Of a stretch of DNA of 64,000 bases, positions 31,297 to 51,375 are shown piece by piece. Within the stretch, counting starts at the first letter, position 1. Every line of letters begins with the position of its first letter. Origin of the DNA: Escherichia coli (GTDB lineage: Bacteria; Pseudomonadota; Gammaproteobacteria; Enterobacterales; Enterobacteriaceae); assembly GCF_048403405.1 (NCBI RefSeq), contig NZ_CP183129.1; one strand, given 5' to 3'. The notes beneath the pieces were generated by a model, which made no database searches, had not been told where the DNA came from, and saw only the letters and a program-made list of their open reading frames with translations. The translations under genes were made by a program, and so were the position numbers.

Positions 31297-32883
31297 TTAA
31301 TGCTCGCGGGTCTGGTGGAACTGAACGTCCGGATAACGTTCCTGCGCCAGGCGCAGGTTGACCATGCTGGTAGCGATGTAAGCGAGGTTATCGCCGCCAT
31401 CAAGCGCCAGTTGGCTTTCGTTCTTACGCTTGAACTCTTCGAATTTCTTCGCGTCCGCACATTCTACCCAGCGGGCAGTGGCAACGTTGACTGACTCATA
31501 CACTGCTTCAACGTTGTATTCGCTCTTCAGACGCGCTACCACCACATCAAACTGCAGCACACCAACCGCACCAACGATCAGATCGTTGTTGGAGATCGGA
31601 CGGAACACCTGCACTGCGCCCTCTTCGGAAAGCTGTACCAGCCCTTTAAGCAGCTGTTTTTGCTTCAGCGGATCTTTCAGGCGGATACGACGGAACAGTT
31701 CCGGCGCGAAGTTCGGAATACCGGTGAACTTCATCATCTCACCCTGGGTAAAGGTGTCGCCGATCTGAATAGTGCCGTGGTTATGCAGGCCGAGGATATC
31801 GCCCGGATACGCTTCTTCAACGTGCGAACGGTCACCCGCCATAAAGGTCAGCGCGTCGGAGATCACCACATCTTTCGCAGTACGCACCTGGCGCAGCTTC
31901 ATGCCTTTTTCATATTTACCGGACACCACACGCATAAACGCCACGCGGTCGCGGTGTTTCGGGTCCATGTTGGCCTGAATTTTAAATACGAAGCCTGTAA
32001 ATTTGTCTTCGCTCGCCTCTACGGTACGGGTATCAGTCTGACGCGGCATCGGCGCAGGTGCCCACTCCACCAGACCATCCAGCATATGATCGACGCCGAA
32101 GTTACCCAGCGCAGTACCAAAGAATACCGGAGTGATTTCGCCCGCAAGGAACAATTCTTTGTCGAACTCGTTAGACGCGCCTTTCACCAGCTCCAGTTCA
32201 TCACGCAGCTGCTGCGCCAGATCTTCACCAACCGCAGCGTCGAGATCCGGGTTATTCAGCCCTTTAACAATACGGACTTCCTGAATGGTGTGGCCTTTAC
32301 CGCTCTGATAAAGATAGGTTTCATCTTTATAAAGGTGGTAAACGCCTTTAAACAGCTTGCCGCAGCCAATCGGCCAGGTGATCGGTGCGCAGCCGATTTT
32401 CAGCTCGTTCTCAACTTCATCGAGCAGTTCCATCGGGTCGCGGATATCACGGTCAAGTTTGTTCATAAAGGTGAGGATCGGCGTATCGCGCAGACGGGTA
32501 ACTTCCATCAGCTTGCGGGTACGATCTTCAACACCTTTTGCGGCGTCGATAACCATCAGGCAGCAGTCCACCGCCGTCAGGGTACGATAGGTATCTTCCG
32601 AGAAGTCTTCGTGCCCCGGGGTGTCGAGCAGGTTAACCAGGCAATCGTGATACGGAAACTGCATCACAGACGTAGTAATGGAGATCCCACGCTGCTTTTC
32701 CATCTCCATCCAGTCCGACTTAGCGTGCTGGTTGGAACCACGGCCTTTTACTGTACCGGCGGTCTGAATGGCCTGTCCGAACAGCAGCACCTTCTCGGTG
32801 ATGGTAGTCTTACCGGCGTCTGGGTGAGAAATAATTGCAAAGGTTCTTCTTTTCGCTACCTCTGCGGCCAAAAGGCTTGTCAT
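31297..32883 (-). CDS. prfC: peptide chain release factor 3 (GTPase)
   Basis: 528 aa, G1 motif [20 protein letters not shown]; start at [15 protein letters not shown]. Confidence 0.93.
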
Positions 32884-33038
32884 AATTGTTGTCTCTTTGA
32901 TTATGTACAATCATATGTACAAAGAAAAATTCATGCCGCTGATTGTACATTTTGGAGGTATCAGAGCATAGCAGAACATGATCAGTAGGTGTATTTGTAG
33001 CCAAAGAACATTTGTACATGCAGCAATCTTTGTTCCAT

Positions 33039-33067
33039 TGACACTGTTTATTCATACAGTTAAAAAT
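33039..33067 (+). promoter_or_regulatory. sigma70-like promoter for the dinI-like gene
   Basis: TTGACA (33039-33044), 17-bp spacer, AAAAAT (33062-33067). Confidence 0.5.
33045..33060. promoter_or_regulatory. LexA box 1 (SOS box)
   Basis: CTGTTTATTCATACAG fits CTGT-N8-ACAG; lies in promoter spacer. Confidence 0.65.
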
Positions 33068-33071
33068 AACA

Positions 33072-33087
33072 CTGTATACAAACACAG
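33072..33087. promoter_or_regulatory. LexA box 2 (SOS box)
   Basis: CTGTATACAAACACAG fits CTGT-N8-ACAG; 16 bp upstream of dinI-like ATG. Confidence 0.7.
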
Positions 33088-33102
33088 TGTAGAGGGATTT
33101 TT

Positions 33103-33351
33103 ATGCGTATTGAGATCTGCATAGCCAAAGAGAAAATGACTAAAATGCCAAACGGTGCTGTGGATGCGTTAAAGGAAGAATTAACTCGACGCATCAGTAA
33201 GCGTTATGACGATGTAGAGGTGATCGTAAAAGCCACCAGCAACGATGGCCTTTCTGTTACGCGCACCGCCGATAAAGATTCAGCTAAAACTTTTGTTCAG
33301 GAAACTCTGAAAGATACCTGGGAGTCTGCTGACGAGTGGTTTGTTCACTAA
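33103..33351 (+). CDS. DinI-family protein (prophage-borne DinI homologue)
   Basis: 82 aa [31 protein letters not shown]...[11 protein letters not shown]; C-terminal WESADxWF motif as in DinI. Confidence 0.85.
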
Positions 33352-33417
33352 TTAACACGTAAAATCGGTAACGGCTGGAAATCATTCAATACTCGCACTA
33401 TCGGAAGTTCACCAGCC

Positions 33418-33460
33418 AACCGCAGCACGTTCTTGCATACGACGTGTCTGCGGTTTTTCA
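33418..33460 (+). terminator. probable intrinsic terminator after dinI-like gene
   Basis: Imperfect stem CCGCAGCACGT...ACGTGTCTGCGG followed by TTTTTC. Confidence 0.5.
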
Positions 33461-33777
33461 ACCATTCAGATACAGCACTCTCATCACATTCATTCTTCCG
33501 CATTAAAGTATATATGACCATATCACCTTAATATTTTTCTTCTTCAGATAAAAATTGTTATCTATGTATACTTTTAAACCGAATCCGTGTAGAGTCTCTA
33601 CCTAAGTTAGTTCACAGCTACCCCTTCAGTTTGCGCCATTAACTTCCTGACTTTTGCCGCTATCTGTAAGCATTCCTGTATACCTGAAACTACAGGGTTC
33701 ATCTACGAACTTTAAGAACACCCAGGATAAAAATTGTCAACTATATTATATATAACACCATACTAATTCGAGGCTAT

Positions 33778-34573: not shown

Positions 34574-35164
34574 ATGTCTCGAATTTTTGCTTACTGTCGG
34601 ATATCAACTCTGGATCAGACCACCGAAAATCAACGCCGGGAAATCGAAAGTGCAGGCTTTAAAATCAAACCTCAGCAAATAATCGAAGAACACATTAGCG
34701 GCTCAGCAGCAACCAGTGAGCGTCCTGGTTTTAACCGGTTGCTTGCTCGCCTGAAATGTGGTGATCAATTGATTGTGACAAAACTGGATCGCCTTGGTTG
34801 TAATGCAATGGATATCAGGAAAACAGTGGAACAACTGACCGAAACAGGTATCAGAGTGCATTGCTTAGCATTGGGGGGCATTGACCTGACCAGTCCAACA
34901 GGAAAAATGATGATGCAAGTAATTTCAGCAGTCGCTGAATTTGAACGAGACCTTTTACTTGAACGCACTCATTCCGGGATAGTAAGAGCCCGGGGCGCAG
35001 GGAAACGTTTTGGTCGACCACCTGTGTTAAATGAAGAACAGAAACAGGTGGTATTCGAACGAATTAAGTCAGGTGTAAGTATAAGTGCCATTGCCCGGGA
35101 ATTCAAAACCTCGCGGCAAACCATTTTAAGAGCCAAAGCAAAACTTCAGACACCTGACATATAA
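34574..35164 (+). CDS. pin: serine recombinase, Pin-type DNA invertase (PinR/PinQ-like)
   Basis: 196 aa; catalytic Ser region [15 protein letters not shown] motif, C-terminal HTH. Confidence 0.88.
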
Positions 35165-35391
35165 AAAATAATCTCGGTGTGAGATGCTTTACGTCTTCCA
35201 AGCCCCCTTCCTTGCCGTAAATGGAAAGATACATCTAATTATAGAATTTATATGTTTTACCCTACGGCAGTGCTGGCCATTCAATATCCTGTGCAGTTGA
35301 CGTATCAACACGGTTCAGCAACACCCGATACTTTTTCCAGGCTTCCAGCAACGGGGTTTCTTCCTCCGTTGCATATACAGCTCACCTTTTT

Positions 35392-35688
35392 TCACCCACG
35401 ATTAACCAACAGCCAGACCAGCAGACACGCCACCACCGGCACAGCAAAATCCATCAGGCTTGCCACATCCCACACGCGCGGATCAAAACCGCCCCACCAC
35501 GGCATGTTAATCCTCTTGCCATGCCCAAACATTTCAATCCAGCGATATTCCGCCTGGGTGTGTTCACGCGCAATGAAGAACGTACAACCGGCTATCGCCC
35601 CGTAAGCCCAGTTCCCGGTAAAAAGACCAACCAGTAGCTGCGCAGCCACAGCACAAAGCGCATGAAGGAAAGGTGTTATATCCATTTT
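35392..35688 (-). CDS. small 3-TM inner-membrane protein of unknown function (prophage accessory)
   Basis: MKMDITPFLHALCAVAAQLLVGLFTG...; three hydrophobic helices; between tail-fibre module and pin. Confidence 0.55.
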   Translation of the reverse strand, partial: KMDITPFLHALCAVAAQLLVGLFTGNWAYGAIAGCTFFIAREHTQAEYRWIEMFGHGKRINMPWWGGFDPRVWDVASLMDFAVPVVACLLVWLLVNRG

Positions 35689-35727
35689 CATCCTACCCAA
35701 TAAAACGGGGCGCTCGGCCCCTTGATA

Positions 35728-50195: not shown

Positions 50196-50267
50196 ATCGT
50201 CCTCACATTTCAGGTGATGCTGCCAACTTACTGATTTAGTGTATGATGGTGTTTTTGAGGTGCTCCA

Positions 50268-50543
50268 GTGGCTTCTGTTTCTATCAGCTGTCCCTCCTGT
50301 TCAGCTACTGACGGGGTGGTGCGTAACGGCAAAAGCACCGCCGGACATCAGCGCTATCTCTGCTCTCACTGCCGTAAAACATGGCAACTGCAGTTCACTT
50401 ACACCGCTTCTCAACCCGGTACGCACCAGAAAATCATTGATATGGCCATGAATGGCGTTGGATGCCGGGCAACCGCCCGCATTATGGGCGTTGGCCTCAA
50501 CACGATTTTCCGCCATTTAAAAAACTCAGGCCGCAGTCGGTAA
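50268..50543 (+). CDS. insA: IS1 InsA
   Basis: 91 aa [43 protein letters not shown]... Confidence 0.9.
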
Positions 50544-50965
50544 CCTCGCGCATACAGCCGGGCAGTGACGTCATCGTCTGCGCGGAAATGGACGAACAGT
50601 GGGGATACGTCGGGGCTAAATCGCGCCAGCGCTGGCTGTTTTACGCGTATGACAGGCTCCGGAAGACGGTTGTTGCGCACGTATTCGGTGAACGCACTCT
50701 GGCCACACTGGAGCGTCTTCTAAGCCTGCTGTCGGCCTTTGAGGTCGTGGTATGGATGACGGATGGCTGGCCGCTGTATGAATCCCGCCTGAAGGGAAAG
50801 CTGCACGTAATCAGCAAGCGTTACACTCAGCGAATTGAGCGGCATAACCTGAATCTGAGACAACATCTGGCAAGGCTGGGACGGAAGTCACTGTCGTTCT
50901 CAAAATCGGTGGAGCTGCATGACAAGGTCATCGGGCATTATCTGAACATAAAACACTATCAGTAA
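50462..50965 (+). CDS. insB: IS1 InsB (transposase, made as InsAB by frameshift)
   Basis: 167 aa ORF overlapping insA in -1 frame. Confidence 0.9.
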
Positions 50966-51375
50966 GTTGGAGTCATTACCCACATTTCATAGGTAATGAC
51001 ATAAGTCAGATCGGCTGAACTCCACAGGCCCGCATCATCGTCGCGCCGGTAGTCATAGCCGCTGGCCACCATACTGGTGATCAAATCTGACAGTGCCGGG
51101 ATATCACTCATCACCGGATAAATCCGGGACTCCATCCACTCATCCAGCTCTGAATCCGGCACCTGAGCAGGCAGGAAAACTTCGATATGCAGCTCCGCCT
51201 GCCAGGTATCGCTGTCCAGCTCTTCGCCCGTGTATTCAGCGCCGGTGAGATAAACGGCAACTGCCGGAAAATCCGCCTCATCAAAAACAGCGGGGCGACC
51301 ATCAAAAAACGTCGCCCCGGTGTCATGCTTCTCCAGTGCATCCAGTACGGCTGCACGGAGTTCAGTATGTTTCAT
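50959..51375 (-). CDS. U: tail terminator protein U; C-terminus altered by IS1 (7 extra codons read into IS1)
   Basis: 138 aa [31 protein letters not shown]...; ends ...ITYEM then WVMTPTY encoded by the IS1 end. Confidence 0.88.

Follow-up and report, generated by a model that had tools for sequence, protein, structure and literature searches.

Introduction

Phage integration into prfC with an altered RF3 N-terminus is already known from Stx1 phages, the cdtI phage and the SXT/R391 elements. In an EHEC O103 strain, an Stx1 phage resides in prfC, and the passages on prfC in Ogura et al. (2007, PMC2323221) describe how its integration alters a short stretch at the N-terminus of RF3 and takes away the gene's own ribosome-binding site and promoter. 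Stx1a and Stx2c phages were found at prfC in CC119 (Nakamura et al. 2023), and the integrases of the cdtI phage and SXT were placed in one prfC-targeting cluster (Smyshlyaev 2021, PMC8138268). Bobay et al. listed prfC among the genes "disrupted" by prophages; our results suggest that this word is too strong for prfC. The SXT/R391 family (Hochhut & Waldor 1999), which is defined by a nearly identical Int, targets the 5' end of prfC and has a published 17-bp attP consensus, ATcATcTCtCACCCtGA, and SXT was reported to supply a promoter for the rebuilt target gene. The dusA-specific islands and the lepA phages of Salmonella likewise insert in the first codons of their targets and supply a new N-terminus, and the dusA islands also supply a promoter.

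In this study, we analyzed the region upstream of prfC in a 64,000-nucleotide stretch of Escherichia coli DNA, referred to below as the window. To the known phenomenon the analysis adds the exact attachment core, evidence of selection on the phage-borne codons, the boundary of the neighboring module and an assignment for a group of TGTACA repeats.

Comparison with described elements

The element in the window is a member of the prfC-integrating lambdoid group and has the att-int type of the cdtI, 2H10 and Stx1a/Stx2c (CC119) phages. Its attP arm, over positions 32822–33102, was 98.9–99.6% identical to those of the cdtI phage (NC_009514), the O103 Stx1 phage, the CC119 phages (LC7278xx) and 2H10. 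These phages share the dinI-like neighbor and an integrase of 96–99.8% identity, and the published consequence, a changed RF3 N-terminus together with a lost ribosome-binding site and promoter, is the same. The element differed from them in cargo, which had neither stx nor cdt genes in the part seen, and in an IS1 copy carried in its tail region.

The SXT/R391 elements insert at the same position of prfC, and the 14-bp core of the present prophage overlaps their attP consensus ATcATcTCtCACCCtGA. In contrast to them, the element in the window is a tailed phage with head, tail and lysis genes and, in the annotated prophage, no transfer genes. We therefore rejected its identity as an SXT/R391 ICE, since it had neither the transfer backbone nor the nearly identical IntSXT that defines that family. 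The integrase has an N-terminal DUF4102 domain and a tyrosine recombinase catalytic domain, the combination that characterizes the IntSXT subgroup. Relatives at approximately 50–52% identity were found in a comparison that contained no authentic IntSXT sequence: none of the best 120 integrase homologues was IntSXT by name, and a tblastn search of plasmids with the integrase gave, apart from a mislabelled chromosome, matches of at most 28% identity. Because no IntSXT sequence was identified, the relationship between the two integrases rests on the literature (Smyshlyaev 2021, PMC8138268). The dusA-specific islands differ from the present element in their target gene.

Attachment core and breakpoint in prfC

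We compared four sequences in prfC orientation: K-12 attB, attP of the free phage 2H10, the junction in the window and the yjjG-side junction of E. coli TUM1226. The block ATTATTTCTCACCC was the only one common to all four, and breakpoint and core could be read directly from the comparison. The host/phage boundary was thus a 14-bp core inside the prfC reading frame (Table 1). In the prfC sense, the window was equal to attP 5' of the core and to attB 3' of it, and the far junction was reciprocal. The core encodes I18-I19-S20-H21-P22 (partial), that is, codons 18–22 at the start of the GTPase P-loop, and lies 48 nt downstream of the prfC start codon. The initial annotation had recognized a prophage–chromosome boundary next to prfC, as the four-way comparison bore out, and had put the junction within 32884–33102. 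That interval, which is exactly the gap between the ATG of prfC (annotated at 32883) and the ATG of the dinI-like gene, turned out to be prophage DNA throughout, and the core lay 49 nt to its left. The arm in the window was identical to the attP arm of 2H10 at 280 of 281 positions, and attP of 2H10 is flanked by int and the dinI-like gene. The annotation's statement that the core was not identifiable held for a duplication within the window, and the external comparison defined the core exactly.

Table 1. Positions of the attachment site, the rebuilt prfC and neighboring features in the window
Feature	Position	Strand	Remarks
Host-derived part of prfC, P22 codon (third base; K-12 numbering) to stop	31297–32821	-	left of core; window equals attB
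Lambda-like prophage	32822–64000		late genes on - strand, toward prfC; runs off the window end
Common core, 14 bp	32822–32835	-	ATTATTTCTCACCC in prfC sense, GGGTGAGAAATAAT on + strand; strand-exchange site
Integrase-distal attachment arm (prophage attR arm)	32836–33037		98.9–99.6% identity across 33 phage records
Phage-borne replacement 5' end of prfC, ATG + 15 codons	32836–32883	-	identical in free-phage attP
Tandem pair TGTACA-N6-TGTACA	32904–32921	+	sites 32904–32909 and 32916–32921; 68 nt from core
Third TGTACA site	32944–32949	-	opposite orientation; AATGTACAAT on - strand
Fourth TGTACA site	33013–33018	-	opposite orientation; CATGTACAAA on - strand
Sigma-70-like dinI promoter	33038–33067	+	TTGACA, 18 nt spacer, AAAAAT
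LexA box 1 (CTGT-N8-ACAG)	33044–33059		between -35 and -10 of dinI promoter
LexA box 2 (CTGT-N8-ACAG)	33072–33087		just downstream of -10
dinI-like gene, 82 aa	33103–33351	+	Pfam DinI (E = 1e-19); NCBIfam DNA damage-inducible protein I; RefSeq DinI-like

The far junction was read in the near-identical genomes TUM1226 and MS 69-1, not in the window's own genome; in the regions compared, TUM1226 and the window shared 99.9–100% identity. In TUM1226 the prophage measured 48,235 bp from core to core, which placed the second core at a window coordinate of approximately 81,057–81,070, outside the window as the initial annotation had expected. The order of elements at this end was an intact yjjG, a sigma-70-like site, the native ATG with a 22-codon prfC stub, the core, a 230-bp arm and int, and the reciprocal junction with the cognate integrase was present in both TUM1226 and MS 69-1. 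In the empty site of K-12, yjjG is the gene upstream of prfC, as had been stated, at a distance of 90 bp, and there is no dinI-like gene at this position, in agreement with its reading as prophage cargo. The intact yjjG–prfC arrangement was found in 4717 of 5426 complete E. coli genomes (87%) and the prfC/dinI arrangement of the window in 475 (approximately 9%).

The initial annotation had proposed that the prophage integrated in the promoter-proximal region of prfC or in yjjG, a reading that would leave prfC itself untouched. The annotated prfC does look complete, and phage-like genes start approximately 220 bp upstream of it. However, the first 48 nt of the open reading frame and everything upstream of them were those of the free-phage attP and differed from K-12, and the native prfC ATG with 22 codons stood beside an intact yjjG at the other end of the prophage. 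Alignment to the prophage-free K-12 sequence, the check that the annotation had itself suggested, put breakpoint and core inside prfC and not upstream of it, which refutes an upstream insertion. We are instead confident, with some reserve, that 32822–33102 represents the integrase-distal end (attR) of a lambda-like prophage of approximately 48 kb in prfC and that the TGTACA repeats are arm-type Int sites. On this reading, a tyrosine integrase would have recombined the 14-bp core of the phage with its exact match in codons 18–22 of prfC.

Coding capacity of the rebuilt prfC

From the RefSeq annotation of the 100% identical MS 69-1 DNA, prfC was mapped to 31297–32883 on the minus strand, and its first 16 codons were phage DNA. 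With the gene cut internally, the phage arm carries a substitute ribosome-binding region, an ATG and 16 codons. The native N-terminal piece was one codon longer than the phage replacement. The hybrid gene encoded an in-frame RF3 of 528 amino acids with a changed N-terminus, which matched the prfC equivalog of NCBIfam along its entire length. Both the surrogate codons and their constraint were directly observed: over the nine shared codons encoding EVAKRRTFA (native codons 9–17), 8 of 27 nt differed, in six codons, and all differences were synonymous. None of 200,000 random variants with eight substitutions kept the EVAKRRTFA peptide (p < 5e-6). As judged from sequence, such synonymous-only divergence is a signature of long-term selection at the protein level on the phage-borne piece, which argues that the hybrid gene is under that selection.

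Among the matches listed, prfC was annotated as intact in 30 of 30 lysogen genomes, including MS 69-1 with its half-deleted prophage, and an in-frame ATG and RRTFA were kept in 113 of 120 related junctions from other species. In approximately 9% of the complete E. coli genomes, prfC is a host–phage chimera, whose start codon, ribosome-binding site and any promoter are prophage DNA. A prophage boundary set at the prfC start would be off by approximately 50–60 bp, and counting such a prfC as "disrupted" would be wrong in kind. Separately, the cdtI phage annotation includes "orf31", a 67-aa open reading frame across attP; it uses a different frame from that of the prfC surrogate and is probably a spurious call, and we rejected it.

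TGTACA repeats in attP

The initial annotation had mentioned several TGTACA repeats in the interval between the two start codons and offered no explanation for them; we counted four, starting at 32904, 32916, 32944 and 33013. An asymmetric extended form of the hexamer was ATGTACAA. An order-1 model gave a local expectation of 0.08–0.27 against the four copies observed in 115 bp, three or more copies were never reached when the interval was shuffled 20,000 times, and the Poisson bound for such a cluster over the whole window was approximately 4e-5. The whole-window count of 10 was equal to the expectation of 10.2, as would be seen if the cluster were a chance feature of AT-rich phage DNA. Against chance stand the local excess just described, the presence of four more clustered copies on the opposite arm and the conservation of the positions in six other genera, so that we give this explanation practically no weight.

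In attP, eight TGTACA hexamers lay within 221 bp on either side of the core, four per arm, and the four on the other arm sat beside int. A 23-bp paired element, TTATGTACAAnCATATGTACA, occurred once in each arm in the same orientation. The TGTACA copies are most likely candidate arm-type integrase sites, as far as their arrangement in the sequence allows one to judge. The copies on both arms would bind the N-terminal domain of the integrase, and the bound sites would hold the recombination complex at a constant spacing from the core. In the papers searched for prfC, the passages on that gene do not mention arm repeats.

This arrangement can be compared with the attP of phage lambda, with its sites P1, P2 and P'1–P'3. 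In lambda, too, the integrase is heterobivalent with an N-terminal arm-binding domain; in both systems a short repeat distinct from the core is found on both arms, in tandem at approximately 70–90 bp and with others at approximately 170–220 bp from the core, and in attP a 7-bp inverted repeat, AATTATT/AATAATT here, flanks the core region. The present attP differs from that of lambda in its motif, in an integrase of the subgroup with a DUF4102/P4-like arm domain, in an int that points away from attP and begins beside the arm, and in a search of attP with the IHF consensus WATCAANNNNTTR that gave no match; its arm sites are candidates. In attP of 2H10 (L003, 2985–3035), the inverted repeat flanks 9 bp of the core region, and either half may be a core-type Int site. 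Of the two, the window keeps just the right one, AATAATT (32830–32836).

The TGTACA motif in related elements

The distribution and conservation of the motif were likewise observed directly. TGTACA was kept by relatives whose integrases were 41–84% identical to that of the present prophage. The integrase homologues of Salmonella (84%), Xenorhabdus (65%) and Serratia (61%) lay beside a prfC stub next to rsmC-holD-rimI and had TGTACA at about -66, -54, -45 and -15 from the int ATG, while the rest of the arm had diverged. Homologues of Shewanella and Pseudomonas (51–52%) were also located at prfC, in unrelated neighborhoods; counted from the int ATG, they had a (T/C)GTACA pair at -70/-58 and one more site at -19. 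In the Moraxella phage Mcat19, whose integrase (41%) is not at prfC, TGTACATAATTGTGTACATAAT was found just before int.

We then scanned genomes, one per species, for TGTACA-N6-TGTACA followed, after a gap of 55–85 nt, by the core and P-loop codons. At least 120 species had this combination, among the Gamma- and Betaproteobacteria and some Alphaproteobacteria; as the scan required the tandem hexamers, it shows spread and spacing and is not an unbiased measure of hexamer conservation. In the 120 listed loci the gap between the pair and the core was 67–71 nt, although 55–85 nt had been allowed, and the consensus extended outside the imposed bases (tgTGTACAtA.ctgTGTACAtA). A tblastn search of these prfC-proximal loci with the integrase matched no more than two decayed fragments, which fits the end of an element that lies away from int, and a second core copy upstream was limited to two small remnants. 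In the two loci with such a core-like copy (L041 and L047), the copy is upstream and only 2.9 kb and 5.1 kb separate it from the junction in the hybrid prfC, which suggests very small or heavily decayed prfC elements in Budvicia and a Burkholderiales MAG.

The surrogate N-terminus MANQDFLNEINKRRTFA was common to many marine genera. In Shewanella, the MANQDFLNEINKRRTFA junction adjoins genes for a CI/S24-type repressor, a cro-like protein and a transglycosylase, and we infer that it corresponds to the right end of an SXT/R391 element. In this presumed SXT/R391 junction, TGTACA-N6-TGTACA lay 69 nt from the core. The surrogate N-terminus in the window differs from MANQDFLNEINKRRTFA, a contrast with SXT/R391 that holds if the Shewanella junction belongs to such an element.

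The Salmonella phage KK-2013 has an integrase of 46% identity, and its attP carries a lepA-like start, MKNIRNFSIIAHID (L131, 1193–1501). The arm geometry was the same as that of the prfC prophage, whereas the target gene and the hexamer were different: TGTCCA-N6-TGTCCA was located 68 nt from the P-loop codons and 44 nt from the ATG, and TGTCCA/TGGACA occurred three more times beside int. KK-2013 thus keeps the distance to the core and not that to the ATG, which favors arm-type Int sites over a promoter role.

This result bears on the alternative that the TGTACA pairs are mainly transcription signals, forming a promoter or operator of int and of the substitute prfC and possibly serving autoregulation by Int. 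The paired element, TGTACA-N6-TGTACATAAT, is indeed found upstream of int and of prfC, oriented alike in both cases, its 3' portion looks like a -10 box (CATAAT), the spacing between it and the int ATG is conserved, and in Acinetobacter species the pair is retained upstream of prfC with no obvious element nearby. However, no -35 or -10 sequence was conserved across 91 unique arms, promoter matrix (PWM) scores were below those of shuffled sequences, the hexamer changes along with the integrase, and the lepA-type relative keeps 68 nt to the core instead of the distance to the start codon (44 vs. approximately 20 nt). We consider a mainly transcriptional function unlikely, though it deserves consideration; the roles in transcription and in recombination are not exclusive and could overlap. 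Arm-type sites thus remain the preferred reading of the repeats.

In Acinetobacter (L011, L014, L018, L019 and approximately 20 more loci), TGTACA-N6-TGTACA stood 68–71 nt upstream of the prfC P-loop codons. The prfC N-termini of this genus were species-specific (MFKDELAREVKARR... and variants), and in L014 (7755–7869) the nearest upstream genes, for a GST and an oxidoreductase, were 1–2.7 kb away and looked ordinary, not mobile. The pair may have been left behind by an old insertion and become fixed, or it may be native there, with a role unrelated to a resident element.

Transcription of the hybrid prfC

The initial annotation had raised the possibility that transcription of prfC begins within the prophage. 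The native promoter-like site, TTGCCT with a 16-nt spacer and TAAAAT downstream of yjjG, scored 12.4 in the PWM and lies 48 kb away from the hybrid gene. The hybrid prfC must therefore, as we infer from this layout, be transcribed from prophage DNA, and to this extent the idea stood; the search for a convincing sigma-70 promoter there did not bear it out further. A consensus scan of 32700–33500 predicted no minus-strand promoter, and an approximate sigma-70 PWM found nothing above shuffled sequences upstream of the hybrid prfC: the best match, TTTTCT with a 17-nt spacer and CATAAT, ending at 32900, scored 7.6 against a median best of 9.5 for shuffles. A weak extended -10 candidate, TACACT with a 17-nt spacer and TG-n-TATTTT, was present at 33091–33063 between the LexA boxes and was not relied on.

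It might be supposed that the hybrid prfC is silent or crippled, the promoter having been removed and the non-essential RF3 simply lost in lysogens. The poor promoter prediction fits this explanation, as do the passages of Ogura et al. (2007, PMC2323221) that left transcription and translation open and called prfC non-essential, and the count of prfC among prophage-"disrupted" genes by Bobay et al. A silent gene is, however, at variance with surrogate codons that diverge by synonymous changes alone, with a frame and RRTFA motif kept in 113 of the 120 junctions listed across many phyla-level groups, and with a prfC annotated as intact in all 30 listed lysogens, one of which has a decayed prophage. 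A silent hybrid gene thus seems improbable to us. On the question of RF3 expression in lysogens that Ogura et al. (2007) left open, the constraint on the sequence argues for expression.

At the yjjG side of the lysogen (TUM1226; L004, 13026–13410), this promoter-like site of the native prfC reads toward int through a stub of 24 codons, and the equivalent of this junction lies at a window coordinate of approximately 80,800–81,200. This suggests host-driven transcription of int in the prophage state. Integration would accordingly exchange promoters: the native prfC promoter-like site would come to act through the stub on int, and the phage promoter that drives int in the circular form would drive the hybrid prfC in the lysogen.

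Together with this promoter swap, we put forward, as a tentative proposal with slightly less than an even chance of being correct, that the arm sites are shared by the whole clade of prfC-targeting integrases and by a lepA sister lineage. A tandem (T/C)GTACA-N6-TGTACA located 67–71 bp from the crossover, with further copies beside int, would be the signature of this clade, which would take in phages, ICEs of the SXT/R391 type and further elements from at least 120 species. The sister lineage would use the same geometry with TGTCCA on the P-loop codons of the paralogous GTPase gene lepA. Both the clade-wide signature and the promoter swap go beyond the literature that we found. The conserved geometry provides concrete candidate arm sites for a clade that also moves SXT/R391 resistance elements.

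The dinI cassette

To the right of the attachment arm, similarity to phages with other integrases started only at approximately 33038, so that the module boundary was directly visible in the comparison. From this position on, the window contained the promoter, the LexA boxes and the dinI-like gene listed in Table 1. The pattern CTGT-N8-ACAG had three matches in the 64-kb window, two of them at the dinI promoter. In phage mEp460, the corresponding sequence carries an annotation as promoter of a dinI-like gene and directly follows an Rci-type integrase gene, and the cassette also stood next to unrelated integrases in PhiR40_1, Lys8385Vzw and others. By sequence comparison, 33038–33351 is a portable cassette under predicted SOS control and not part of the attachment site. 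The attachment arm itself was present in 33 phage records, among them 2H10, PhiR63_1, cdtI and the Stx1a/Stx2c phages of CC119.

Prophage genes and rearrangements

RefSeq annotation of identical DNA included the virion and lysis genes J, tape measure, portal, terminase, lysozyme and others. By Pfam, the integrase comprised Arm-DNA-bind_3 (PF13356, DUF4102, E = 2e-16), Phage_int_M (PF22022) and Phage_integrase (PF00589) domains.

The IS1 copy in the tail-gene region occupied 50213–50980 and was flanked by a 9-bp target duplication, CACATTTCA (50204–50212 and 50981–50989). It was missing from related genomes (matches of 96% coverage). In MS 69-1, all DNA between an IS1 at the equivalent place and int had been deleted, and half of the prophage was gone. 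Nearer to prfC, a DNA-invertase gene of the recombinase family adjoined a truncated tail-fibre-assembly gene and tail-fibre genes (34574–35164 and 35252–35700), and this arrangement is probably the remnant of an invertible host-range switch.
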